46,904 nt of DNA, taken from assembly GCA_964481185.1 (NCBI GenBank), contig CAYZSY010000002.1, positions 1-46,904 of the forward strand. The letters run 5' to 3'. Within the stretch, counting starts at the first letter, position 1; each line of letters opens with the position of its first letter. Positions 6,046 through 45,538 of this stretch are shown here, piece after piece. The position numbers and the translations under genes were made by a program. A model generated the notes under the pieces. The model was not told where the DNA came from and made no database searches. It was given only the letters and a program-made list of their open reading frames with translations. Source of the DNA: Candidatus Woesearchaeota archaeon. GTDB taxonomy: Archaea > Nanobdellota > Nanobdellia > Pacearchaeales > GW2011-AR1.

Positions 6046-7014
6046 ATGATATTGGGAATAGAGTGCACGGCGCATACTTTTGGAGTAGGAGTTGTTAATG
6101 AAGGCAAAATTCTTGCAAATGTGAAAGATATGTATATTCCATTGAAGGGAGGAATTATTCCTATGGAAAGCGCGAAGCACCATTGCAAGGTTGCAGATGA
6201 ATTATATTCTAAAGCGTTGTCTGTTGCTGGAATTTTAGAGAGAGAAATTGGTGCTATTGCACTTTCAAATGCACCAGGATTATCTCCTTGCTTGATTGCA
6301 GGAATGCAATTTGCAAAAGAAAAAGCAAAAAAACTTGGAGTTCCAATTGTTCCTGTTAATCATTGCATTGCTCATCTTGAGATTGGGAGGAGCGTTGGAG
6401 CAAAAGATCCGGTTTTGCTTTATGCTTCGGGGGCAAATACCCAGATAATTGCTTTTGCTTCAGGAAAATATAGAATATTTGGGGAAACTCTTGATTTGGG
6501 TGTTGGCAATTTTATTGACAAAGTTGCAAGGCATTTTGGGATGCCTTTTCCAGGAGGACCTAAGATAGAAATTGCTGCGAAAGGAGGAAGACTAATCGAG
6601 CTTCCTTATTCGATAAAAGGAATGGATGTTTCTTTTTCAGGGATGCAGACAAAATTGCAGCAGCTTTTTGATAAGGGGGAAAAAATAGAAAATCTTGCGT
6701 TTTCAATGCAGGAAACTGCTTTTGCAATGCTTGTTGAGGCAGCAGAGAGGGCAATGGCTCATACAGGAAAGAAAGAGCTTGTTCTTGGAGGTGGGGTAGG
6801 TTGCAATTCAAGATTGCAGGAGATGTGCAAAATAATGTGCGAGGAGAGGGGAGCGAGGTTTTTCTGTCCAGAAAGGGCTCTTCTTACTGACAATGCTGCA
6901 ATGATTGCATATACAGGAGAGATAATGTTTAATTCAGGGATTAAAGTAAATGCTAATGAAATTGATATCTCTCCAAGAGAGAGAACAGACGACGTGAATG
7001 TGACTTGGAGATAA
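6046..7014 (+). CDS. kae1: tRNA N6-adenosine threonylcarbamoyltransferase Kae1
   Basis: 322 aa. MILGIECTAHTFGVGVV N-terminus, NHCIAHLE metal-binding block, GGGVGCNSRL and DNAAMIAY blocks typical of Kae1/OSGEP. No fused Bud32 domain. Confidence 0.9.
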   Translation: MILGIECTAHTFGVGVVNEGKILANVKDMYIPLKGGIIPMESAKHHCKVADELYSKALSVAGILEREIGAIALSNAPGLSPCLIAGMQFAKEKAKKLGVPIVPVNHCIAHLEIGRSVGAKDPVLLYASGANTQIIAFASGKYRIFGETLDLGVGNFIDKVARHFGMPFPGGPKIEIAAKGGRLIELPYSIKGMDVSFSGMQTKLQQLFDKGEKIENLAFSMQETAFAMLVEAAERAMAHTGKKELVLGGGVGCNSRLQEMCKIMCEERGARFFCPERALLTDNAAMIAYTGEIMFNSGIKVNANEIDISPRERTDDVNVTWR

Positions 7015-7069: not shown

Positions 7070-7112
7070 CAGAGATTGAAATCTCTGTACCATTCAACTC
7101 TCGCGAGTTGAA
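7070..7112 (+). repeat. two-hairpin module in the L7Ae leader (copy A of the module at 17707-17751)
   Basis: CAGAGAT-TGAA-ATCTCTG (7070-7087) and TTCAACTC-TCGC-GAGTTGAA (7093-7112). Near-identical stems recur in the same order and spacing at 17707-17751. Confidence 0.6.
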
Positions 7113-7136
7113 GGCAATTAAATATGCGGAGGTCAC

Positions 7137-7451
7137 ATGGACTTCTATAATATCGTCGAAGCGGCAAGAAAAACAGGAAAGATTGATAAGGGAACGAACG
7201 AAGTTACCAAAGCGATAGAGCTTGGAGTAGCAAAGCTTGTTGTTTGCGCAAAAGACGTTGAACCAAAAGAAATTGTTGCTCATCTTAATATTCTTTGCAA
7301 AGAGAAAAATATTCCTTTTGCTGAAGTTGATTCAAAGCAAAAACTAGGTATTGCTGCCGGAATTGGAGTTAATGCTTCTTCTGTTGCAGTAATAAACGGC
7401 GGCGAAGCGGATTCTGATATTGCTCAATTAAAGAAACAGGCTTCTAAGTAA
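7137..7451 (+). CDS. rpl7ae: 50S ribosomal protein L7Ae
   Basis: 104 aa. [44 protein letters not shown] is the L7Ae/L30e signature. SD GGAGGT upstream. Confidence 0.9.
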
Positions 7452-7984: not shown

Positions 7985-8077
7985 GAAAAATCTAGTTTAT
8001 CGTCGGTAAATTCAAAAAAAGATGGCAAAGGTTTATAAAGCAAGTTTGATTTTTTATGTCAGAGAAATAATAATAAT

Positions 8078-11000
8078 ATGATTGCTAAATCTAGCGAGGA
8101 AAAAGAGAGATCTTACAAGTCTGAGCATATAAAAGTACTTGAAGGATTAACAGCGGTGCGTATGAGGCCAGCGATGTACATAGGAAGCACCAGCAAGATG
8201 GGACTGCATCATTTAGTTTATGAGGTTGTTGATAATTCTGTTGATGAAGCTATGGCGGGTTATTGCGATTCTATTGTTGTTTCCATAAATAAGAATGGGA
8301 GTATAACTGTAACTGATAACGGGAGGGGAATCCCTGTTGAACCGCACCCAATTTATAAAAAACCTGCATTGGAAATTGTTGTTACAAAGCTTCATGCTGG
8401 AGGCAAGTTTGAAAAAGGAAGCTACAAGGTTTCTGGAGGTCTGCATGGTGTTGGAATAAGTGTTGTTGCTGCATTATCTAAGCTGATGAAAGCAGTTGTA
8501 AAAAGAGGCGGTAAGATATATCAGCAGGAATATAAAATTGGAAAGCCACAATATGATGTAAAAGTTGTCGGCAGTTGTGATAAAGATGATACAGGCACCG
8601 AAGTAACTTTTTTTCCAGATGAAAACATATTTTCAACAACAAAATTTGAATTTTCCATTTTAGAAAATAGACTTAGAGAGATTGCATTCCTAAATAAAGG
8701 TGTTAAAATTGTTCTTGAAGATGATGAATCAAAGAAAAAAGAGACTTTTCATTATGATGGCGGTTTGATTGAATTTATAAAATGGGTAAATAGGAGCAAG
8801 GAGCCAGTGCATAAGCCTGTTTATTTTGTTAAAGAAGCAGAAGGGGTTACAATTGAGTGTGCTGTTCAATATAATTCTGGCTATCAGGAAAATGTCCTTA
8901 GTTTTGTAAACACAATAAATACTGTTGAAGGCGGGACTCACGTTGTTGGTTTTAAAACTGCGCTTACAAGGGCAATAAACGATTACGCAAATAAAAATAA
9001 ACTGATAAAAGAGAATCTCACTGGAGATGATGTTCGCGAGGGATTGACTGCAATTATTTCTGTAAAGGTTCCTGAGCCGCAGTTTGAGGGTCAGACAAAG
9101 ACAAAGCTTGGAAACAGCGAAATAAAAGGGATTGTTGACGGCATTGCAATGAAAATGCTTACAGAGTTCTTTGAGGAAAACCCTGCTGTTGCAAAGTCCA
9201 TCGTAAATAAATCTCTTGAGGCACAGAAAGCCAGAAATGCTGCAAGGAAAGCAAAAGAGCTTGTAAGGAGAAAAAGCGCGTTTGGTTTTGGGGGGCTTCC
9301 TGGAAAACTTGCAGACTGCTCAAAGAACAAGGCAGAAGAAACTGAATTATATCTTGTGGAAGGCGATAGTGCTGGGGGTTGTTTTGCAGGAAATGTCGAA
9401 GTGGCATTGGCTGATGGGAGAAATGTTTCTTTTGAAAAATTAGTTGAAGAAGCAAAAAATGGCAAGCAAAACTTTTGTTATGCAATCAAAGAAGATGGAA
9501 GCGTTGGAATAGAAAAAGTAACTAATCCGAGAATTACAAGAACAGATGCTTCTGTAATAAAAATAACATTAGATAATGGTGAAGAAATAACTTGCACACC
9601 AGATCATAAATTTATGTTAAGAGGTGGGACATATAAAGAAGCTAAAAATTTAACAAAAGAAGACTCTTTGATGCCGTTACACAAAAGAATCTCTAAAATC
9701 GGCGGAAGAATTACAATTGAGGGCTACGAAATGATATGGGATCAGAATAAAAACTGGATTTTTACACACATGCTTGCCGATGATTACAATCTAAGAAACA
9801 ATATTTATCCAAAGGAACAAGGAGATCATAAACACCATATAGATTTTAACAAGAGAAATAATAATCCGACAAATATTGTTAGGCTTTCTAAAGAAGGCCA
9901 TCTTATTTTGCATACTGAGAATTTGGTCAGGACATTGCACAGGGAAGATGTAAAAAGAAAGGCGGCAGAAGCGCATAAAAACCCGGAGTATAGAGAAAAA
10001 ATGAGCAATTGGGCAAAAAATCCCGAAGTTAGAATTATGATAAGTGAGAATAGTAAAAAACAATGGCAAGATGAGGATTATAAAAACTATATGAAAGAGA
10101 AATTCCTAGAGTTTTATAATTCTGACGAAGAGTATAGAAAGCGAAATAACGAGCTGCTTGATAAAAACCAAAAGGAATATTGGGCTAATCCGGAAAATAG
10201 AGAAAAAGCAGCTGAGAAAGTAAAAGAGTTCTTTAAGAATAATCCAGAAGCTAAGGAATATTTGTCAAATCTTGCCAAAGATCAGTGGAAAGATGAAGAA
10301 TTGATAATTTGGAGAAGACAAAAAACAATGGAGCAATGGACGCCAGAATTTAGACAACAACGAAAGATAGCTTATAACCAGACTTATTATAGAAAAACAA
10401 TTTCTTTGATGAAAAAAGTTATTGAAAAAGAAGGTAATTTGGATAACTTTGATAAGATAAGAATTCAAAACAATGATAAATCTATCTTGAGCCTTAATAC
10501 ATTCAACAAGAGATTTTTTGATAATAATAAGTCGAGAATGGTTGAGACTGTTCAAAATTGGAATCATAAAATTAGGAGTATTGAATTTTTGAAAGAGAAA
10601 ATTGGTGTTTATGATATTGAGGTTCCCAAAATGCACAATTTCGCTTTAGCATCTGGAGTTTTTGTCCATAATAGCGCGAAAATGGCGCGCAACAAGGAAT
10701 TTCAGGCAATTCTTCCATTGAAGGGTAAAATATTGAATGTAGAAAAAGCAAATCCCGTAAAGGTATTATCAAATGAAGAAATTTCCAATCTTATAACTGC
10801 GATTGGAACAGGAATAGGTGAGCAGTTTAAACCTGAGAGTTTGAGATATTCAAAAATTATAATTATGACTGATGCTGATGTTGATGGCGCGCATATTCGT
10901 ACATTGTTATTGACTTTCTTTTTCAGATTTATTCCTAAGTTAATAGATGATGGGCATTTATACATTGCAGTCTCTCCTTTGTACAGAATAAGAAAAAGAG

Positions 11001-11275
11001 GGGACCATTATGTTTATTCAGACGAAGAACTGAAAGATATTCTAAAGGAAATGGGTGGGAGCGTTGATGTACAAAGGTTTAAGGGGCTTGGAGAGATGAA
11101 TCCTGAGCAGCTTTGGGAGACAACTATGAACCCAAAAACGAGGTTGTTGAAAAAAGTTATTGTTGAAGATGCTGCTATTGCTGATGAGGTCTTCTCAAGA
11201 TTAATGGGGGAAGATGTTGAAGAGAGGAGGAAATTCATAGCAGAGAGAGCTCACGAAGCTCAAATTGATATTTAA
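8078..11275 (+). CDS. gyrB: DNA gyrase subunit B, interrupted by an in-frame intein
   Basis: 1065 aa. GHKL ATPase blocks ([21 protein letters not shown]), TOPRIM EGDSAGG then [26 protein letters not shown], and [12 protein letters not shown]. Removing residues 435-865 gives a normal ~634-aa GyrB. Confidence 0.95.
9380..10672 (+). mobile_element. GyrB intein (431 aa) with HNH-type endonuclease region
   Basis: Begins with Cys right after EGDSAGG ([13 protein letters not shown]) and has a block-B-like CTPDH. Ends [19 protein letters not shown] followed by Ser (SAK). The centre carries [29 protein letters not shown] (HNH, 9827-9913) plus NPE..(K/R)..W helical repeats. No LAGLIDADG motif seen. 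Confidence 0.85.
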
Positions 11276-16091: not shown

Positions 16092-16133
16092 AAAAATTTG
16101 ATATTTTTCCGCGTTTATAACATTTATTGTGAT

Positions 16134-16263
16134 ATAGAGCACAAACTATGACTTTTAAGTCATAGATGATTGTATAGTTTGTCTCTGTCTCCCAAAATCC
16201 TTTCAGATAAATCTGAGCAAACCATGGGCTTCAGCCCATGGTTAACACAAGGATTTTGTGATG
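16134..16263. ncRNA. candidate structured RNA / structured repeat, copy 1
   Basis: Non-coding. Domain 1 has long stem (C)AGAG-C-ACAAACTAT/ATAGTTTGT-CTCT enclosing hairpin GACT-TTTA-AGTC. Domain 2 has closing stem CAAAATCC/GGATTTTG enclosing TCAGA-TAAA-TCTGA and ACCATGGGC-TTCA-GCCCATGGT. Second copy at 44600-44718. Strand not determined. Confidence 0.5.
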
Positions 16264-16332
16264 TTATAAATAACATATTATTAATCATTTATGAGTAATA
16301 ACATTTATATATAGAATTTAATCTGTTTTGTT

Positions 16333-16714: not shown

Positions 16715-17611
16715 TCAAAATCTCAAACCATCTTTCTTTAGTATCTCAATTAAAAATCTAACAAATGGATTAAGATTTCCAGTTTTGTGCGCTGTTTGAA
16801 GAACTCCATAATATCTAAACCTTCTTTTCTTTGGAATATTAATTAGAGGAAACTTATTTTTATGCATAATAAAATTCATCAATAGTCTACCAACTCTTCC
16901 ATTTCCATCTACAAATGGATGTATTCTCTCAAATTCTATGTGAAAATAAGAAGCTAAAATCAAGGGGTGTAATTTCTTCTTATTCGTTGAGTACCATCTT
17001 AGTAAAGATGCCATTAATTTATGCACTTCTTCTGGTTTTGGGGGGAGATGCATTCCAACTTTAACTCCAACATTCCGGTATATTCCTATCTGCTGCACAA
17101 GATAAGATTTTAATGTGTTTACTACGACCAGTCTATGTAAATTCAGAATAAATTCTTTAGTTATGTCTTTCTTATAATCAAGTATAAAATCAAATGCTTT
17201 TTTATAGTTTAGCACTTCATAAATCTCTCTCATTGATTTTTCTTTTGGGACAATTCCTTCAAACAATAAAAAGGAAGTTTCCTCAAAAGTTAAAGTATTT
17301 CCTTCTATACCTGTCGAGTCATAAGCAAAAAGAGAGCAAAAGGTTTCATACCTATTCTCATAATTTGCTTTTGGCTCCTTAGAAAAATCTCTTTTTACAC
17401 TCGCTAAAAATCTTAAGTCCTTGTCTGTTAATATTTCAGAAAAAATGTTTAATTTTTTGTCTGCTTCTTTCTCTTTAATTTTCAGTTTCTCTTTTGAGAG
17501 GTTAACTCCCAAGTACACTCTTTCTTTATCTGTCTTTTTGCCTCTTTTTACGCTCTTAACTCTGTAATAATACTTCTTACTGCCTCTTTCTTTTATCTCA
17601 TTATAAACCAC
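16715..17611 (-). CDS. Fic-domain protein (AMPylase-type, N-terminal inhibitory motif)
   Basis: 298 aa, GTG start. Canonical Fic motif HPFVDGNGRVGR. An upstream STGIEGN fits the (S/T)xxxE(G/N) auto-inhibitory helix of class II Fic proteins. Confidence 0.85.
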   Translation of the reverse strand: MVYNEIKERGSKKYYYRVKSVKRGKKTDKERVYLGVNLSKEKLKIKEKEADKKLNIFSEILTDKDLRFLASVKRDFSKEPKANYENRYETFCSLFAYDSTGIEGNTLTFEETSFLLFEGIVPKEKSMREIYEVLNYKKAFDFILDYKKDITKEFILNLHRLVVVNTLKSYLVQQIGIYRNVGVKVGMHLPPKPEEVHKLMASLLRWYSTNKKKLHPLILASYFHIEFERIHPFVDGNGRVGRLLMNFIMHKNKFPLINIPKKRRFRYYGVLQTAHKTGNLNPFVRFLIEILKKDGLRF

Positions 17612-17681
17612 ATTTTATATACGTCCACCTTGTTTATAAATTTTTTGTTATGGTGGACACACAAATATCTCTATTTACTCC

Positions 17682-17691
17682 AAAATAAAAA
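17682..17691 (-). terminator. oligo-T tract (TTTTTATTTT on the minus strand)
   Basis: Immediately follows the GGGGCGG end of the tRNA-like element on the minus strand. Archaeal terminators are oligo-T runs. Confidence 0.35.
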
Positions 17692-17692
17692 C

Positions 17693-17804
17693 CGCCCCAA
17701 CCGGCTCAGAGATTGATATCTCTGGGACTTCAACTCCAGTGGAGATTGAAGTGAATCAGACATGTCCGATTCAAGAGTTGGGAATGGACTTACAGTCCAT
17801 TAAA
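17693..17804 (-). other. tRNA-Asp 3'-end duplicate plus triple-hairpin cloverleaf-like element
   Basis: CGCCCCAACCGG (17693-17704) exactly repeats 17805-17816, the T-stem/acceptor/discriminator of tRNA-Asp. CCCAAC (17696-17701) pairs with GTTGGG (17777-17782), enclosing three hairpins at 17707-17724, 17728-17751 and 17752-17773. A fourth hairpin, ATGGACT-TAC-AGTCCAT, lies at 17784-17800. Confidence 0.6.
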
Positions 17805-17877
17805 CGCCCCAACCGGGAATCGGACCCGGATCTCATCCGCGACAGGGATGTGTACTGAACCATTATACGATTGAGGC
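17805..17877 (-). tRNA. tRNA-Asp (anticodon GUC)
   Basis: Reverse complement: acceptor GCCTCAA/TTGGGGC, D arm GTAT-AATGGTTCA-GTAC, anticodon arm CATCC-CTGTCGC-GGATG, T arm CCGGG-TCCGATT-CCCGG, discriminator G. TATA-like TTTTAAAAA lies about 30 nt upstream. Confidence 0.9.
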
Positions 17878-17926
17878 ACGATAATGGTTGGCTGGAGTGA
17901 TTTTTAAAACTTACTTTTTGTTTGTT

Positions 17927-18175
17927 TTATTGCTCGTCTTTGTGATAGAAATCCAACAAGTAAATGGTTTTTATATTCTTATTATAAGAATATGATAGTC
18001 TCGATGATCTAATGTAAACTTCTCGCGTTCCTTTTCTGTCAAATTTCATAGGTTTGCCTATTTCAGGATTATTTGCTATCTTGAATAATATCTTCTCGAT
18101 TCTTTCTCTCATAAACGCATCTTTTATTTTGGAAACAACCCTCTTATAATTATCTGAAAATATTAATTTTACCAT
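17927..18175 (-). CDS. RelE/ParE-family type II toxin
   Basis: 82 aa. Size, basic composition, the C-terminal IYLLDFYHKDEQ-type ending and a 7-nt overlap with the upstream antitoxin gene fit RelE/ParE. Confidence 0.65.
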   Translation of the reverse strand: MVKLIFSDNYKRVVSKIKDAFMRERIEKILFKIANNPEIGKPMKFDRKGTREVYIRSSRLSYSYNKNIKTIYLLDFYHKDEQ

Positions 18176-18438
18176 GTCTTCATTTCTTTTATGAAGTCAT
18201 CAAATTCCATAGTAGTACACTTTCCTGCCTCTATTTCTTTCCATGCTTCTTCTGTTCTTCTTGCAAATTCCAAATCTTCTTTCAATTGTTTGTCCATTTT
18301 GCTAGCCTTCTTAATAATTATTTGATTACCATTTTTTATGATAACCAATTTCTCACCTTCTTTTATGTCTTTTCTCATATCAAGAGGTATTACAACTTGC
18401 CCCTTTGAACTCATCCTTGTTATATCCATCTCCGCCAT
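18169..18438 (-). CDS. AbrB/MazE/SpoVT-family antitoxin
   Basis: 89 aa. N-terminal SSKGQVVIPLDMRKDIKEGEKLVI is the swapped-hairpin AbrB/SpoVT DNA-binding motif. Confidence 0.75.
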   Translation of the reverse strand: MAEMDITRMSSKGQVVIPLDMRKDIKEGEKLVIIKNGNQIIIKKASKMDKQLKEDLEFARRTEEAWKEIEAGKCTTMEFDDFIKEMKTW

Positions 18439-18525: not shown

Positions 18526-19440
18526 TTATTCTTTATCTTTAGCCTGGTTCTTACTTAAACTTTCAGTCCAGAAACTTGGCAATGAATGTGAAACAGCTCC
18601 TTCAAAGTCTGAATCAATAAGATAGACAAATCCTCTCTTGTCTCCTTCTAATTTCTTGAATGCAGAATCCGCTTTCTCGTAGAACTTCTTTATCTCGGGG
18701 CGCTCCATCTCTAACTGCAAGAGACTGCCTTGTTTTACAAGAAGCATATCCGAAAGCTTTAGAACATTCTTGTCTATCATTCCAGTGTTTTGTGTTATGA
18801 ATAAAACAGTAAGATTCTTGTGCCTTGCTATTGCGAGAATTCCTGCTAATCCTTTATTTGTTTTGCTCATACTATCTCTTGAGCCGAACGATATTGCTCC
18901 CTCATCAACTAGGAGTGCAGAGCCCTGAGGAGCATCTTCTATGTTTTCTATAGGGCTTATCCATTCGGGCATGTTCTCCTGGGAAACTCCAAGAACAAAG
19001 CATTTTCTTCCTGTTTTATGATGAATATTCTCAAGAAGCCTAAACCCAAGTGCGCTCTTTCCGCTTCCCCTCTTTCCAAATATAAGAGAGATTATTGAAT
19101 CTTCGTGGATTCTTTTCTCAGAAACTTGGTAATCTCCTGAAATTGCTTCTAAAACTTGAAGAGGGTCAAACATCGCTCTCTTTCCGTAAGTTGGGCTGCT
19201 TCTTAGCTTTCTTTTTTCAGAACTCTCTTTTATTTTTCTTGATGTAACTCTATAAAGAGAGCTTATTAATTTGCTTATTAACCACCATATTCTAGATGTA
19301 ACATTGTATATTCCTTTTATAGACTTGCTTATTAACCACCATATTCCCTTAAGAAGATACCAGATTCCAAGAAATATCCCTTTGAATATCCATCCAGTGA
19401 TTTTCCAAAGAAAATTTATCTGCTGCCTTTTCCTCGTCAT
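18526..19440 (-). CDS. membrane-anchored P-loop NTPase (FtsK/HerA- or Zot-like)
   Basis: 304 aa. Hydrophobic Trp-rich N-terminus with an 18-aa tandem repeat, Walker A GKRGSGKS, Walker B ALLVDEG, then ARHKNLTVLFITQN. Its ATG overlaps the TAA of the upstream gene by 1 nt. Confidence 0.65.
   Translation of the reverse strand: MTRKRQQINFLWKITGWIFKGIFLGIWYLLKGIWWLISKSIKGIYNVTSRIWWLISKLISSLYRVTSRKIKESSEKRKLRSSPTYGKRAMFDPLQVLEAISGDYQVSEKRIHEDSIISLIFGKRGSGKSALGFRLLENIHHKTGRKCFVLGVSQENMPEWISPIENIEDAPQGSALLVDEGAISFGSRDSMSKTNKGLAGILAIARHKNLTVLFITQNTGMIDKNVLKLSDMLLVKQGSLLQLEMERPEIKKFYEKADSAFKKLEGDKRGFVYLIDSDFEGAVSHSLPSFWTESLSKNQAKDKE
19271..19346 (-). repeat. 54-bp in-frame tandem duplication inside the ATPase N-terminus
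   Basis: TTGCTTATTAACCACCATATTC occurs at 19271-19292 and 19325-19346. It encodes IWWLISKSIKGIYNVTSR / IWWLISKLISSLYRVTSR. Confidence 0.8.
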
Positions 19441-20279
19441 TATTTTAACCTCACTTTGTTTGTATTTCCAAAAGGAATTTTCTCAATAAGGTTTCTTGCT
19501 TCTAGGTTTCTGATAACTCTGCTTAGTTTGGCCTTAGAAAATCCAGTGCTTAATTGCAACTGCTTTTGCCATAATTCTCCTCTGTCGGATTTTCTTAGAT
19601 TGTCTAGGATTTTCTTTTCAGCATCAACAAGATGCTTGTCAATCTCTGAGCTGTTTGATGTTTTCTTTGTTTTCCCTGCTAGTTTTGAATATGCATAATA
19701 TATTCCAAATAAAACTATTAAAATAGCCGGAATAATCCATGTAAATGTGTTTATGCCAGAATTTCTGGTTTTTATAGAAATGAAGAAAGGAAAATCGTCT
19801 CCTCTCTTTATATTATTTAACTCCCAAATAACAAATATCTGCTCTCCATCTGTTTCTGTCTTAAAATTATCTGGGAATATCTTCTCTGATTCAAGAGAGT
19901 TGCCTTCTTCAATAGCTATCTTTATTGTAACTTTTGCGAAATCTTCGTTGAAAACAATTTTATCAATAAGATAGTAACCTCCTGCAATTTTTGATAATAA
20001 GTTCTGAGAGAGATAACTGATTCTGATGTTTTTTCCTTTTATTATTAGGTTTTTATCTTCAAGCGAGTAGTTTAAATTGGAAGAGATTGAATGGGCATCA
20101 CTCGGCAGAGAGATTGATATCTCTTTTTCACTCTCAAAATTGATTTTTTGATCTACAAGAACTTTTTCACCTATTTGATTAAATACTATCTCGGAGCTTT
20201 GCGCAGAAGCCAGAGAGATGAAACTAACTAGGACTAATACAGAACAGATTAACCTGGCTTTAGAGTTCATATATGGCAT
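19440..20279 (-). CDS. membrane-associated winged-HTH protein (signal peptide, extracellular domain, TM, cytoplasmic wHTH)
   Basis: Start chosen at ATG 20279 (MPYMNSKARLICSVLVLVSFISLASAQ); the longer track ORF overlaps the divergent gene at 20330. TM helix WIIPAILIVLFGIYYAY. C-terminal ILDNLRKSDRGELWQKQLQLSTGFSKAKLSRVIRNLEARNLIEK is MarR/wHTH-like (COG2512-type architecture, from memory). Confidence 0.6.
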   Translation of the reverse strand: MPYMNSKARLICSVLVLVSFISLASAQSSEIVFNQIGEKVLVDQKINFESEKEISISLPSDAHSISSNLNYSLEDKNLIIKGKNIRISYLSQNLLSKIAGGYYLIDKIVFNEDFAKVTIKIAIEEGNSLESEKIFPDNFKTETDGEQIFVIWELNNIKRGDDFPFFISIKTRNSGINTFTWIIPAILIVLFGIYYAYSKLAGKTKKTSNSSEIDKHLVDAEKKILDNLRKSDRGELWQKQLQLSTGFSKAKLSRVIRNLEARNLIEKIPFGNTNKVRLK

Positions 20280-20329
20280 TTTATGAAAGCAAAGCTCGTA
20301 TTTAAATATTTTAATTTTCTTAAATTGAT

Positions 20330-20575
20330 ATGGGCAGAAAGAAGAGGGTTGCAAAAATACCAAAAAATGTGCTTCTTAAATGCCCAATTTGTTCTATGAA
20401 AAGCAGGGCGATTGTATCTATTGACAACTGCCCGCAGTCTTTCATATGCCCAAAATGCAATGCAGAAGTCAAAAATCCTCTTACTTCTTGCTGTGTTATA
20501 TGCGCATTCTCTGGGAAGAAGTGTCCTAGAACTCTTTTTGCTGAAGCGAGAGTTAAAGGGCTTGAATTGAGATAG
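20330..20575 (+). CDS. Cys-rich zinc-ribbon protein
   Basis: 81 aa with CPIC...CPKC and then CCVIC...KC spacing. Confidence 0.45.
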   Translation: MGRKKRVAKIPKNVLLKCPICSMKSRAIVSIDNCPQSFICPKCNAEVKNPLTSCCVICAFSGKKCPRTLFAEARVKGLELR

Positions 20576-31767: not shown

Positions 31768-31875
31768 AATTATCTCAAGAACTTCTCCTCTTAAAAATTT
31801 ATTCTTTAAGTGACGTTTACTTTACAGCTCACTCATAAGTTAGTTTTAAATATCGTCTAATTTTATAAGAACTAT

Positions 31876-32059
31876 CCCCTCGTGGCTTAATGGCTAAAGC
31901 GTCTGGCTGTAGACTAATAGTCTAGCGCGGACATTCCCGCAGAAGATTAACATCTTCAGGGACAGGATGAAGCGCGATTAGCAACCATTGGCATTCAGGT
32001 TAGGAAGGCGAAGGCCGACAGAACCCGGAAGATTCCCAGTTCGATTCTGGGCGGGGGGA
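31876..32059 (+). tRNA. tRNA-Tyr (anticodon GUA) with 111-nt intron at 37/38
   Basis: Acceptor CCCCTCG/CGGGGGG (C1-G72, as in archaeal tRNA-Tyr), D arm GCTT-AATGGCTA-AAGC, anticodon stem TCTGG/CCGGA, loop CTGTAG..C, T arm CCCAG-TTCGATT-CTGGG. Intron 31913-32023. CTGT(32-35) pairs with ACAG at the intron 3' end, leaving a 3-nt AAC bulge. Confidence 0.8.
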
Positions 32060-32093
32060 TTTTATTTTTAATTAGTTATTAATCTTAGAAATC

Positions 32094-35669: not shown

Positions 35670-35740
35670 GCGCTCTTAGTTTAGTGGTAGAACGACTGGT
35701 TGCCAATCAGTAGATGGGGGTCCGATTCCCCCAGAGCGCA
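35670..35740 (+). tRNA. tRNA-Gly (anticodon GCC)
   Basis: Acceptor GCGCTCT/AGAGCGC, anticodon arm ACTGG-TTGCCAA-TCAGT, T arm GGGGG-TCCGATT-CCCCC, discriminator A. Confidence 0.9.
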
Positions 35741-35742
35741 CT

Positions 35743-44376: not shown

Positions 44377-44599
44377 GATGAATGAAAATAGGTATTGCAA
44401 TGAAGCCCAAGATGAACTTAAGAATGTCTGGGATTTTGCAATAATGCAGTACGAGGGAGGCTTAAACAGAGAAGCAATATATGCAGCTGTAAGAGGAAGC
44501 CATCGTTTTAGAAAATTTTCTGGGGCAAAGACAGACTTTTATATGGAAATGAGATCTCATATAGAAAAGGCCATTGATTCTGTTGATTCTAAACTTTGA
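44363..44599 (+). CDS. hypothetical protein
   Basis: 78-aa ORF overlapping the upstream ORF by 14 nt. Confidence 0.4.
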   Translation: MTKNEMNENRYCNEAQDELKNVWDFAIMQYEGGLNREAIYAAVRGSHRFRKFSGAKTDFYMEMRSHIEKAIDSVDSKL

Positions 44600-44718
44600 T
44601 ACAGAGCACAAACTATGACTTTTAAGTCATAGATAATTGCATAGTTTGTCTCTGTCTCTCAAAGTCCAAACAAACCTTGGCTTTTAAGCCAAGGTAAAAT
44701 ACAAGGACTTTTTGATGT
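44600..44718. ncRNA. candidate structured RNA / structured repeat, copy 2
   Basis: The first ~67 nt are about 92% identical to 16134-16200. The 3' half keeps closing stem CAAAGTCC/GGACTTTG and hairpin ACCTTGGCT-TTTA-AGCCAAGGT with compensated substitutions relative to copy 1. It lacks the TCAGA-TAAA-TCTGA hairpin. Confidence 0.5.
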
Positions 44719-44728
44719 GAAAATTAAT

Positions 44729-45538
44729 TTATTTTTTCTCAATCATTTTATTTATCAGGCCCGTCATCTCTGACATAAATTTCTCTGCAATTTCCTGCCA
44801 TCTGTCTATTTCAGAACCTTTTACCTCTGAAACTTTTCCATGAGAGATATTTTTGTGCATTGCAAACAAATCATTAAACGCTCTTACATAACCTGTAGAA
44901 ACCATTCCTGTGTCTACAAATGCTTCTTTAAGCATCTCACCTATCTGTTCTGGGCTTGGAGGCATTTTTCCTGCAACAATAAGAGCTGCCTGCGCAGAAT
45001 CAACCATTGTCCAATAAATTCCCTCTATAGCTCCCATTTCTGCAATCTTGCTTCTTACAAGATGGGTCGGGGCTCTTTGCAATGCTACAAAAGCAGCTTC
45101 AGGCGTTGACCTTATTTTTCCTTTTTCAAGAAGGAATTTAAGAGGTGTAAAAAATCCGCCCAAATCTATGAGCGCTTCTCCATATCTCAAAATGTTAAGA
45201 ACAACAGGATCTCCATGAATTAAATCCTGCCACCATGTTGTAAGTTTAATTGTGTTTATATGCAACTCTTTTCCATAATCTTTCCCAGCTATTAACTTTC
45301 CTAATTCTTCCCTGTACCAAGCTATGAGCTCCAAATCCCATTCAACAGAGGCGTCATCTATGATTAAAACTATATCTATATCTGACTTAGTTGTCTGAGT
45401 GTTTTTTGCCTGAGAGCCAAAAAGGATTGATGCTTTTAGAAGCCTGTCAAACTTTGCCTGCGCCCTTGATGCAAAATCCAGAGAAATATCTCTTTCACTT
45501 ACAAGTCTCGTCTCTTTCTTATCACCTTTCTTTCTCAT
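44729..45538 (-). CDS. nucleotidyltransferase-domain protein (paralog of the core of 36285-38099)
   Basis: ATG at 45538 (MRKKGDKKETRLV); the longer track ORF overlaps the upstream gene. GSQAKNTQTTKSDIDIVLIIDD is the NTase core. FFTPLKFLLEKGKIRSTPEA...ALIVAGKMPPSPEQ parallels the 604-aa protein. Confidence 0.7.
   Translation of the reverse strand: MRKKGDKKETRLVSERDISLDFASRAQAKFDRLLKASILFGSQAKNTQTTKSDIDIVLIIDDASVEWDLELIAWYREELGKLIAGKDYGKELHINTIKLTTWWQDLIHGDPVVLNILRYGEALIDLGGFFTPLKFLLEKGKIRSTPEAAFVALQRAPTHLVRSKIAEMGAIEGIYWTMVDSAQAALIVAGKMPPSPEQIGEMLKEAFVDTGMVSTGYVRAFNDLFAMHKNISHGKVSEVKGSEIDRWQEIAEKFMSEMTGLINKMIEKK

Follow-up and report, generated by a model that had tools for sequence, protein, structure and literature searches.

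How did the 3' end of a tRNA-Asp gene come to be present twice in a contig from a small DPANN archaeon of groundwater (Woesearchaeota), and what are the 100 nt that lie between the two copies? The whole stretch of 46,904 nt that was analysed is referred to here as the window. The 73-nt tRNA-Asp(GUC) gene lies at 17805-17877 on the minus strand and was identified with Rfam (RF00005, 56.2 bits, full model 1-71) and with ARAGORN, whose boundaries are one base wider at each end. CCA is not encoded and the T-loop, UCCGAUU, is unusual (C at position 55). The repeated segment, CCGGTTGGGGCG on the tRNA strand and CGCCCCAACCGG on the plus strand, occurs at exactly two sites in the window, 17805-17816 (proximal) and 17693-17704 (distal, 112 nt downstream of the proximal one). 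With two mismatches allowed there is still no third match in 46.9 kb, and shuffled whole-window sequences gave a mean of 0.29 matches. Since the tRNA gene is limited to 17805-17877, the repeat corresponds to tRNA positions 62-73 and spans four bases of the T-stem 3' strand (62-65), the entire acceptor 3' strand (66-72) and the discriminator G73. Behind the proximal copy there is only TTTAAT, behind the distal copy an oligo-T tract, GTTTTTATTTTGG (17680-17692, minus strand). A first-pass annotation had reported both the 12-nt duplicate and the oligo-T tract, and both are confirmed. The tract is probably the original terminator of tRNA-Asp; T tracts of this kind directly follow element-free tRNA genes of relatives.

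The 100 nt between the copies contain no gene and no ORF, and form four near-perfect hairpins with loops of only 3-4 nt. All features are on the minus strand. Hairpin HA (AATGGACT-GTA-AGTCCATT, 17783-17801), recovered by folding, is confined to tRNA-Asp-linked copies of the element. It is followed by the anti-acceptor segment CCCAACT (17776-17782), an inverted copy of tRNA-Asp positions 64-70. Hairpin H1 (TGAATCGGAC-AT-GTCTGATTCA, 17752-17773), read from the sequence and conserved in five copies, has a 5' arm that is an inverted copy, and a 3' arm that is an imperfect direct copy, of the tRNA-Asp T-loop region G53-C61 (GTCCGATTC). The last two hairpins make up the core shared with other copies, namely H2 (CTTCAAT-CTCC-ACT-GGAG-TTGAAG, 17728-17751) and H3 (C-CAGAGAT-ATCA-ATCTCTG-A-G, 17705-17725), in which the A at 17706 is bulged. 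CCCAACT pairs with GGTTGGG of the distal repeat, and this stem closes a four-way junction. On one strand the order is R''-L''-loop-L'-R', which reads CCCAAC, GAATCGGAC, AT, GTCTGATTC and GGTTGGG. The termini, TTTAATGGACTG... and ...CAATCTCTGAG, do not match each other as inverted repeats. Folding of both strands, a check proposed in the first-pass annotation, beat shuffled controls. For the 125-nt stretch the tRNA strand has a folding energy of -46.8 kcal/mol (z -4.37, equalled by 0 of 200 shuffles), and the plus strand one of -46.6 kcal/mol (z -5.75).

The four hairpins and the CCCAAC/GTTGGG stem of the earlier description were all found. That description had also called the unit a tRNA-like cloverleaf with an acceptor-like stem. 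The unit is indeed structured and cloverleaf-like, but it is no tRNA or pseudogene, as the Rfam tRNA model finds nothing in it at E values up to 10; the stem is present, but together with H1 it is built of inverted and direct copies of the host tRNA (T-loop and acceptor 3' strand). With permissive settings (E up to 10), cmscan of 17600-17950 gave only tRNA-Asp on the minus strand, ARAGORN, which had been suggested as a further check, reports no tRNA in the interval, and the sole other tRNA-type match there is to tRNA-Sec on the plus strand (15.8 bits, E 1.8, threshold 47). Rfam scans at gathering and permissive thresholds gave nothing but tRNAs and no family for the element. Several other identities were rejected. 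Of the boxes of an archaeal C/D box sRNA, CUGA is present twice but C and C' are missing, and the sole Rfam snoRNA match has 15.2 bits (E 1.9). Neither repeat boundary can be drawn as a bulge-helix-bulge motif (BHB; a 4-bp helix between two 3-nt bulges at the splice sites), and tRNA-Asp needs no splicing to be complete, which excludes an intron or an alternative 3' exon. Kinship with the 59-nt and 111-nt tRNA introns of the window was not found either. The conserved cores of hammerhead and hairpin ribozymes and group II domains are absent by reading, and a retroviral-type primer-binding site is contradicted by the missing TGG for CCA and by the His copies, which have no such segment. A bacterial terminator and promoter scan was uninformative, the host being archaeal.

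The element is not unique to its site. Homologues were found behind tRNA-Asp in two other metagenomic contigs (L028 and L032), behind tRNA-His in two Woesearchaeota MAGs (L071 and L081) and, in L081, also behind an intron-bearing tRNA(UAU), the Ile copy. The family thus has six tRNA-linked members and one solitary core. The first-pass annotation had proposed a search of related genomes; L028 and L032 retain the element plus the duplicate rather than an ordinary spacer. The tRNA-linked copies follow a common plan, in which an inverted and a direct segment of the host T-loop and acceptor are followed by H2-H3 and then by a 10-16 nt direct repeat of the host 3' end. The terminal repeat is CCGGTTGGGGCG in the tRNA-Asp copies (window, L028 and L032, exact in all three), CACCTTCCGC (L071) and CACCTTCAGC (L081) in the tRNA-His copies and CCTGGTGGGCTCATTA in the tRNA(UAU) copy. 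It starts at tRNA position 61-63 in every tRNA-linked copy, with lengths of 10, 12, 14 and 16 nt, and in the window and every tRNA-linked homologue the insert lies between direct repeats, one of which belongs to an intact tRNA. The earlier interpretation of the duplicate as the footprint of an insertion survives testing, and none of the outcomes that the first-pass annotation had named as refuting was seen: relatives retain element and duplicate, shuffled controls fold less well, and the strong oligo-T run lies behind the distal copy and not behind the tRNA. The anti-acceptor equivalents are also host-matched: TGAAG pairs with CTTCA in the L081 His copy and CACCAGG with CCTGGTG in the L081 Ile copy. 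Five of the six tRNA-linked copies form a four-way junction; L071 has neither an anti-acceptor arm nor a closing stem. Positions 71-73 are unpaired in the window and in both L081 copies, whereas in L028 and L032 the stem extends to position 71. The left ends of the copies are alike (TTTAATGGA, TTTAAGGGA and TTTTTATTGGA), and the right end is ...CTGAG. If the H1-H2-H3 family of tRNA trailers is defined by an inverted and a direct copy of the host T-loop, H2 (CTTMAA..TTKRAG), H3 with a bulged A and a direct repeat of host positions 61/62-73, the window copy has every defining feature.

Related arrangements were also observed. The tRNA-Val gene in L085 has a hairpin of the H1 type only downstream of it, and in L039 and L051 tRNA-Asp is followed by two tandem 112-nt units. 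A copy of at least 10 nt of the own 3' end lies downstream on the same strand at 14 of the 27 tRNA genes of the related loci; same-strand upstream copies of at least 10 nt are found at two of the 27, both artefacts. Inverted downstream copies are found at eight of the 27, and seven of these belong to the same phenomenon. A contig scan with the window's own HA and closing stem gave no matches, because HA covaries in relatives.

The solitary core is located in the window itself. A lone H2-H3 core (CTTCAACTC-GCGA-GAGTTGAATG, GTA, CAGAGAT-TTCA-ATCTCTG) lies at 7070-7113 on the minus strand, intergenic and with no tRNA nearby, in the 5' region of a plus-strand gene. It has no tRNA-derived flanks and no flanking duplication. 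The motif AGAGAT-N4-ATCTCT occurs three times in the window against 0.01 expected. The H2-H3 core is homologous in all tRNA-linked copies and in 7070-7113, and two copies of it are present both in the 47-kb window (17705-17751 and 7070-7113) and within 8 kb of L081. H3 is genome-specific, the window pair being alike and the L081 pair being alike, which fits spread within a genome. H2-H3 alone is the transferable core, whereas the tRNA copies on either side of it, inverted and direct, are specific to each host.

We then compared the helices among the copies; these were tabulated by hand because whole-element MAFFT alignments misalign H3. Across the seven copies, 98.4% of the H2 cells are paired and three pairs are changed on both sides. 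The formal covariation test covers H2, for which the score was reached by 0 of 500 shuffles. On the tRNA strand the H2 tetraloop is GNRA in four of five cases (GTGA, GTAA, GCAA and GCGA). The base of H3 (CAG/CTG) and its bulged A are conserved in the window, L028, L032 and L071, and both L081 copies keep the bulged A on a CG/CG base. The apex of H3 varies between genomes yet pairs every time. HA has two compensatory pair changes relative to L028 and L032, whose arms are AAGGGATT/AATCCCTT, so that compensatory changes are seen in HA, H2 and H3. G.U pairs are found in H1, H2 and the closing stem, mostly on the tRNA strand. Between the window and L032, 54 of the first 60 nt of the element are identical, compared with 51% of the third codon positions of a syntenic gene and about 55% of the flanking intergenic DNA, which serve as neutral yardsticks. 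Most of the changes keep pairing; four are in HA pairs, one turns C-G into U.G in the closing stem and one is in the H1 loop. Related copies behind three different tRNA genes, each closing with the tail of its own tRNA, show that the window element is conserved and probably mobile, not a random scar.

The surroundings of the tRNA genes show what the element may have displaced. Four of the six element-bearing tRNAs are followed by 1-3 consecutive T, with T4-5 after the distal repeat. The exceptions are L032, which has no run of T4 or more after the distal repeat, and L071, in which T5 directly follows tRNA-His and separates it from the element, so that co-transcription is doubtful there. In L019 a tRNA-Asp identical at 73 of 73 positions is followed immediately by T-runs and an integrase gene, and in L074-L080 tRNA-His is followed immediately by a T-run and hisS. 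Both lack the element and serve as empty sites for the oligo-T comparison, although their flanks are not orthologous to those of the window; the one insert with a demonstrated empty site (L011) is the larger insert of L017. Larger tRNA-Asp inserts bounded by the same repeat carry a 135-aa ORF (L017 and L012), a Fic gene (L020), a degraded integrase in 536 nt (L022) or a type I restriction-modification island (L067). At their ends, an inverted copy (CGCCCC or CTCCCC) precedes a direct one of the tRNA end, and in L011, L012, L017 and L024 newer inserts appear to displace older ones downstream. ORFs adjoining tRNA-Asp in L014 and L019 match Pfam Phage_integrase. The tRNA-Asp 3' flank is an integration hot spot.

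Signs of movement were searched for in several ways. A search of the same population by way of the Fic and RelE-like proteins found no variant or empty allele. All contigs of this population that were inspected (20 displayed loci, out of 19 and 23 contigs read) have the identical arrangement with the identical 315-nt spacer, and there is thus no sign of current excision. Pfam listing of the neighbouring genes revealed no integrase or transposase in the 47-kb window; Phage_integrase genes occupy this site in other genomes only, L014 and L019. The cassette-end motif CTCCCCC-N3-YCTC is absent after the Fic gene of the window. IMG/VR viral contigs gave 0 matches for the predicted circular junction, H1, H2, the right end plus core and the cassette-end motif, and blastn against phage and plasmid collections gave no match to the element.

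How, then, could such a unit have arisen? Our preferred explanation, to which we give about an even chance, is that it is a non-autonomous mini-element that entered the tRNA 3' end through att-type recombination and is co-transcribed with the tRNA as a self-folding trailer. The element would be an insertion module without genes, about 112 bp long (100 nt and one repeat), from a small family behind tRNA genes in Woesearchaeota-like DPANN archaea. In the ancestral tRNA-Asp gene, ...CCGGTTGGGGCG would have run directly into the oligo-T terminator. A small element with its own copy of positions 62-73 would have recombined there, at an att site of the 3'-end class, on which tyrosine integrases act; since the module encodes nothing, we propose that the integrase was supplied in trans. 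The tRNA 3' end would thereby be rebuilt from the copy of the element, and the original 3' end and terminator moved 112 bp downstream. Only T3 follows tRNA-Asp, and transcription should therefore read through to the displaced terminator, which would make the module a 3' trailer bearing a second acceptor 3' strand. The inverted copy (CCCAAC...GAATCGGAC) may keep this second copy harmless by pairing with it; as it pairs with the distal repeat, the trailer would fold on itself (closing stem, H1, H2 and H3) and not compete with the true acceptor stem. The predicted empty junction is ...GATTCCCGGTTGGGGCG joined to GTTTTTATTTTGG. If the element is still mobile today, the predicted circular or tandem junction is ...ATCAATCTCTGAG followed by CCGGTTGGGGCG and TTTAATGGACTG, that is, CTCTGAG-CCGGTTGGGGCG-TTTAATGG.

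A plain att model leaves some features without an account. It does not explain the inverted host-tRNA copy in each element, nor why H2-H3 splits the direct tRNA copy exactly at 61/62; the repeat length of 10-16 nt and the 7070-7113 core without tRNA flanks are further points against it. A more specific reading, which is possible but doubtful, is that the elements are a new class of DPANN mini-elements homing to tRNA 3' ends, in which H2-H3 is embedded in inverted and direct copies of the target, the att site is folded, tRNAs anchor cassette arrays and the target is copied instead of a fixed att site being carried. The folded strand would here mimic the double-stranded tRNA 3' half, in a manner comparable to attC or the CTX-phage attP hairpin.

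The evidence also has to be read against explanations without such an insertion. It is rather unlikely, in our judgement, that the unit is a functional structured RNA, namely a co-transcribed tRNA-like trailer or small RNA that selection keeps for its own activity, in which the repeat mimics or pairs like the host tRNA and does not come from DNA insertion; processing or chaperoning signals, decoys for tRNA-binding enzymes and regulators are examples of possible roles. The compensatory changes in three hairpins, the GNRA tetraloops and G.U pairs of the tRNA strand, the conserved bulged A in H3, conservation far above that of neutral sites and the T-run positioned after the distal repeat are all what would be expected of an RNA, as is the four-way junction of five of the six tRNA-linked copies, three of which leave 71-73 unpaired. 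However, no Rfam family matches, the plus strand of the window folds equally well, T5 separates tRNA from element in L071, the lone H2-H3 copy sits in the opposite context, the 5' region of a plus-strand gene, and close relatives with identical tRNAs manage without the element. An inert scar would be 100 nt left from a larger island after internal deletion, without function or mobility of its own. Decayed islands with the same bounding repeat do exist, as the integrase remnant in L022 illustrates, the site is a hot spot, and within its population the element is fixed and shows no variation. But independent decay would not converge on one 80-112 nt unit behind three different tRNAs, and neither seven copies at four kinds of site with a common core and architecture, nor helices maintained through compensatory changes, nor conservation above neutral expectation are expected of a relic. 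Among the options of the first-pass annotation, which were a miniature integrative element, an att scar, a MITE-like unit and a co-transcribed RNA, we regard the plain inert scar as improbable and the least likely.

Two further rivals keep DNA mobility and change its mechanism. One holds that the unit is a folded single-stranded DNA recombination site resembling attC or the CTX-phage attP, with tRNA genes as attI-like anchors and the window as an empty cassette. The folded tRNA copies would mimic the double-stranded tRNA 3' end, H2-H3 would be the variable branch, and the inserts of 0.5-1.5 kb in relatives would be cassettes with cargo. The R''-L''-loop-L'-R' order on one strand, the conservation of structure instead of sequence, the inverted plus direct tRNA-end copies that also end the larger inserts and the apparent shift of older inserts downstream by newer ones all agree with this, and integrons and attC sites exist in Nanoarchaeota (PMC9668308). 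We give it little credence, since an IntI-type integrase was not seen, neither the His nor the Ile copies have the RYYYAAC/GTTRRRY boxes, the anti-acceptor arm is missing from L071, and the Rfam scan (E up to 10) has no attC match. An integron attC proper, in which R'' RYYYAAC and R' GTTRRRY close one imperfect hairpin with extrahelical bases, was rejected; TCCCAAC ... GTTGGGG of the window is no more than a near match, and it closes a four-way junction, not a single bulged hairpin. The other rival, whose probability we rate equally low, is a palindromic transposable element (MITE-, PATE- or REPIN-like) with a transposase that duplicates a 10-16 bp target precisely at tRNA 3' ends, in the fashion of casposons. 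It would account for a repeat that matches the host every time from the same starting tRNA coordinate, for the similar left and right ends, for the lone core elsewhere in the window and for the pairs of tandem units in L039 and L051. On the other hand, a MITE identity was rejected on the absence of terminal inverted repeats and the inconstant duplication length, no transposase or Cas1-like gene was seen nearby, the lone copy has no flanking duplication, and the inverted host-tRNA copy is not explained by transposition.

DPANN archaea have tiny genomes and poorly known mobile elements. As the locus shows, their tRNA 3' ends are much used for integration, and a gene-free structured unit of about 100 nt can persist and spread there in a form fitted to the individual host tRNA. 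A mobile unit would be a new kind of tRNA-homing mini-element and give a handle on its recombinase; a unit that works as an RNA would be a new tRNA-linked structured RNA. In practice, such units and the partial tRNA copies near them can mislead the annotation of tRNAs and of genomic-island boundaries in metagenome-assembled genomes.

Among known systems, the element is close to the tRNA-targeting integrative elements. Archaeal elements at tRNA 3' ends have been reviewed, and archaeal tyrosine recombinases are known to use short att sites at the 3' end and to switch from one tRNA gene to another as target (PMC8371274); PYG1 is flanked by a 44-bp repeat (PMC9897764). In common with these, a direct tRNA 3' repeat flanks the insert, the tRNA is reconstituted, the original end and terminator are displaced and integrase genes occupy the same tRNA-Asp site in relatives; their known traits include the short att class at the extreme 3' end and related integrases that switch tRNA targets. 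Unlike them, the insert in the window is only 100 nt, is gene-free, has conserved covarying hairpins and contains an inverted host-tRNA copy, and the same core is found behind three tRNAs and once alone. Streptococcal CIMEs are non-autonomous att-flanked elements. In tycheposons of Prochlorococcus, tandem and decayed inserts are separated by partial tRNAs (10.1101/2020.12.28.424599). Here, too, successive integrations at one tRNA displace older inserts and leave remnants and integrase fragments, and elements that lack an integrase can be moved in trans. Tycheposons and CIMEs are, however, kilobases long with cargo, whereas the window unit comes from DPANN archaea, and none has been described as a structured unit of about 100 nt built partly from the host tRNA.

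Integrons and attC sites exist in archaea, including Nanoarchaeota (PMC9668308). The likeness to attC arrays consists in structure kept over sequence, an inverse-core and core pair (CCCAAC ... GTTGGGG), the implied strand-specific folding and cassettes at one anchor. Here, however, the anchor is a tRNA gene and not attI, the fold is that of a four-way junction, a search for IntI found none, the repeat has 10-16 nt and not 7, and the core boxes are unconserved in the His and Ile copies. The element is short, non-coding and hairpin-rich, as are MITEs, PATEs and REPINs, and its H2-H3 core is present in two copies in the window and in L081. Casposons, described by Krupovic, Beguin and colleagues, reportedly duplicate some 14-15 bp at the 3' end of a tRNA. 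In contrast to MITEs and casposons, the element lacks terminal inverted repeats, neither a transposase nor a casposase was seen, the repeat is variable and host-tRNA copies are internal. Finally, mascRNA and viral tRNA-like structures are processed from longer transcripts. With these the unit shares a cloverleaf-shaped four-way junction, an acceptor 3' strand in the closing stem and a short 3' overhang, but it fails the tRNA covariance model, its 3-4 nt loops have no D, anticodon or T-loop features, and L071 has no closing stem.

The window is from an AT-rich archaeon (G+C about 35%), and its tRNA-Asp(GUC) gene lies on the minus strand at 17805-17877 (Rfam match, 56.2 bits). Identical proteins tie the window to groundwater metagenomes from Rifle and to assembly GCA_018304255.1. 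The first-pass annotation proposed that a 12-nt duplicate of the 3' end of this tRNA closes a cloverleaf-like hairpin element. The duplicate was confirmed. The 12-mer CGCCCCAACCGG (plus strand; CCGGTTGGGGCG on the tRNA strand, tRNA-Asp positions 62-73) occurs in the whole window exactly twice, at 17805-17816 and 17693-17704, even with up to two mismatches allowed, and 100 nt separate the copies. All of the proposed hairpins were found within this interval, which folds well above shuffled sequences on both strands (z -4.37 and -5.75), and the cloverleaf corresponds to the junction of H1, the closing stem, H2 and H3. Minimum-energy folding of the entire 201-nt transcript predicts that the distal acceptor strand could compete with the real acceptor stem.

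The element is found at several tRNA genes. A metagenome scan for two 12-mer copies 85-115 nt apart returned mostly GC-rich junk, plus two homologues, L028 and L032, which lie immediately 3' of tRNA-Asp and have the exact 12-mer at their end. Additional scans revealed the hairpins 3' of tRNA-His in the Woesearchaeota MAGs L071 and L081, and another copy in L081 (L081-Ile) 3' of a UAU-anticodon tRNA that contains an intron. The His copies terminate in the repeat CACCTTCCGC or CACCTTCAGC and the UAU copy in CCTGGTGGGCTCATTA, in every case the host tRNA's own positions 61/63-72/73; across the element copies the repeat is 10-16 nt long. Every tRNA-linked copy has the same order: tRNA, short spacer (including HA where the host is tRNA-Asp), inverted copy of the host 3' segment, direct copy of the host T-loop region, A, H2, H3, and finally positions 61/62-73 repeated directly. 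The window segment CCCAAC-TCTT-GAATCGGAC reverse-complements tRNA-Asp positions 53-61 and 65-70, and GTCTGATTC copies positions 53-61 imperfectly. The matching pieces in the UAU copy, CACCAGGATTT and TTCAAAT, follow the differing T-loop of that tRNA. The inverted copy is predicted to pair with both direct pieces, forming H1 and the closing stem, with H2 and H3 branching exactly at 61/62, the position at which H2-H3 always splits the direct tRNA copy. This four-way junction was predicted separately for the window, L028, L032, L081-His and L081-Ile, and not for L071. L039 and L051 contain an unrelated family with this arrangement, present as two tandem 112-nt units.

A solitary H2-H3 core, with a GCGA tetraloop and the H3 CAGAGAT-TTCA-ATCTCTG, was found in the window at 7070-7113 (minus strand), between ORFs 6046-7014 and 7137-7451. 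Because it lies just downstream of a TATA-like TTTATAAA, it would be the plus-strand 5' leader of a 104-aa gene. The motif AGAGAT-N4-ATCTCT occurs three times in the window against 0.01 expected. We also observed that the 16-nt H3 palindrome AGAGATTGATATCTCT recurs exactly at 20103-20124 (plus strand), inside the coding ORF 19440-20363 (DUF7343, minus strand), matching at 20 of 22 nt including flanks; a hairpin inserted in frame or a palindrome bound by a protein may account for it. A further intergenic repeat, about 160 nt long (16130-16290 and 44597-44748; 75% identical overall, 93% in its first 71 nt), contains two hairpins, and one of these covaries (AACCATGGGCTGAAGCCCATGGTT vs AACCTTGGCTTTTAAGCCAAGGT).

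The 3' end of tRNA-Asp is also occupied in relatives. Scanning species-representative genomes with the T-arm and acceptor of the window tRNA-Asp yielded 14 Woese-, Pace- and Nanoarchaeal loci. In at least seven, an 11-15-nt copy of the 3' end lies 0.5-1.5 kb downstream on the same strand. Same-strand downstream copies of at least 10 nt of a gene's own 3' end were found for 14 of 27 tRNA genes, upstream copies for two (both artefacts), and inverted downstream copies for eight, seven of which are the same phenomenon. The repeat-bounded inserts carry a 135-aa ORF (L012, L017), a Fic gene (L020), HTH genes (L024) or an integrase remnant (L022). The sequence 3' of the distal copy in L017 equals that immediately 3' of the tRNA in L011, which is therefore an empty site for the L017 insert. 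The ORF adjoining tRNA-Asp in L014 and L019 matches Pfam Phage_integrase, and a type I restriction-modification island in L067 ends in an orphan copy of the tRNA-Asp 12-mer. Thus, in this clade the tRNA-Asp 3' end is a true hot spot of integration.

In L015 (2574-2800), an intron-bearing tRNA is followed by three units of about 80 nt in tandem, which start with increasingly degenerate tRNA 3'-end copies (CGGTTGGGGCG, CGGTGTGGGCG, CGGTTTGGCG) and lie immediately upstream of a truncated integrase gene. A covarying hairpin is present in at least the first two units. L061, a contig from a different environment (G+C 42%), repeats a tRNA T-arm and acceptor 3' strand (AGGTTTTGGACGGTCCAAGGTTCGATTCCCGGTTGGGGCG) in four tandem 40-nt copies (923-1054). 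The Fic gene promoter in the window (17600-17680, minus) has an inverted repeat, GTCCACC ... GGTGGAC, around a TATA-like TTTATAA, and the promoters of integrases adjoining tRNA-Asp in L014, L022 and L023 have an equivalent layout (CGTGG-TATAAGC-CCACG). An AbrB/MazE-like and RelE-like toxin-antitoxin pair (17927-18438, minus) between tRNA-Asp and the Zot-like gene is missing at the syntenic locus L032, so insertion has reached the 5' side of tRNA-Asp too.

The element's sequence and pairing show signs of constraint. HA shows two compensatory pair changes between the window and L028/L032. H2 is 98.4% paired across seven copies; in three of its pairs both bases have changed. Its covariation score was matched by none of 500 shuffles and exceeded all slid controls. 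The H2 loops are GTGA, GTAA, GCAA and GCGA in four copies. The CAG/CTG base and bulged A of H3 are kept in the window, L028, L032 and L071; both L081 copies also have a bulged A, there with CG/CG as the base. Apex sequences differ between copies and always pair, and H3 is genome-specific, the two window copies being alike and the two L081 copies alike. G.U pairs lie mainly on the tRNA strand. When the window is compared with L032, 54 of the element's first 60 nt are identical, against 51% of third codon positions in the syntenic Zot-like gene and about 55% of flanking intergenic DNA. Of all rivals, an inert scar fits these data worst, and we give it little credence. A purely RNA-level function of the interval is unlikely. 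An attC-like folded-DNA site is improbable. There is an equally slim chance that the repeats are the target-site duplication of a transposon.

Most likely, the module was inserted by att-type recombination at the tRNA 3' end, with the recombinase acting in trans. This is based on the host-matched repeats, element-free relatives (L019 and L074-L080), the displaced oligo-T tract and the same repeat in integrase-bearing islands. Four of the six element-bearing tRNAs have no T-run of four or more directly 3' of the tRNA and T4-5 after the distal repeat, and at those four the module probably forms a transcribed trailer; the exceptions are L071, with T5 right after the tRNA, and L032, whose distal repeat has no such T-run behind it. 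The inverted tRNA copy would then pair with the second acceptor strand and keep it from invading the real acceptor stem, and we propose that this masking is why pairing is selected on the tRNA strand. We give even odds to att-type insertion, trailer transcription and masking combined. However, att-type insertion does not account for the origin of each copy's inverted host-tRNA segment, the constant split at 61/62, the spread of repeat length or the mover of the solitary core. Viral, phage and plasmid collections yielded no free form, the window showed no integrase or transposase, and no contig inspected from the same population had an element-less allele.

The window also encodes archaeal ribosomal proteins, gyrase and intron-bearing tRNAs. 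Its gyrB (about 8000-11260; L001 16337-19534; 1065 aa), upstream of gyrA, has an intein, with a Pfam Intein_splicing match between GyrB domains. Default ARAGORN overlooked two intron-bearing tRNA genes. The first (1169-1303, minus), with a 59-nt intron and anticodon region CTTATAA, is called Ser by ARAGORN but is more likely Ile-UAU; the second (31875-32060, plus) is tRNA-Tyr, whose intron measures 111 nt. The T-loop UCCGAUU is common to tRNA-Asp, tRNA-Gly, tRNA-His and tRNA-Val of the clade (window 17805-17877 and 35670-35741; L071, L081, L085); position 55 carries C instead of the near-universal U, which precludes the usual pseudouridine 55. A conserved structured element of about 70 nt lies in the interval from tRNA-His to the histidyl-tRNA synthetase gene (approximately L075 2287-2360, CAGTTCTCCGCAGTGAGTCTCCGAGCATGTTGAGGAGAGTCGAACAAGAGAGGACTG; L076 699-770; L079 963-1035; L080 3619-3690), whose outer stem covaries (CAGT../..ACTG, CGGT../..ATCG, TTGAA../..TTCAA) and which may serve hisS as a leader or regulatory RNA.

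When compared with known classes, the element failed the membership tests for tRNA, attC site, MITE, C/D sRNA and BHB intron, and no Rfam family matched it. We consider it rather unlikely, though conceivable, that the element stands for a new class of mini-elements that home to tRNAs and copy their target. Archaeal tyrosine recombinases are known to recognise short att sites located at the very 3' end and to change from one tRNA target to another (PMC8371274), and successive integrations produce islands with partial tRNAs between them (10.1101/2020.12.28.424599; PMC9897764); the tRNA-Asp hot spot agrees with both. Compared with tRNA-targeted integrative elements, the element behaves like one cut down to its att region.
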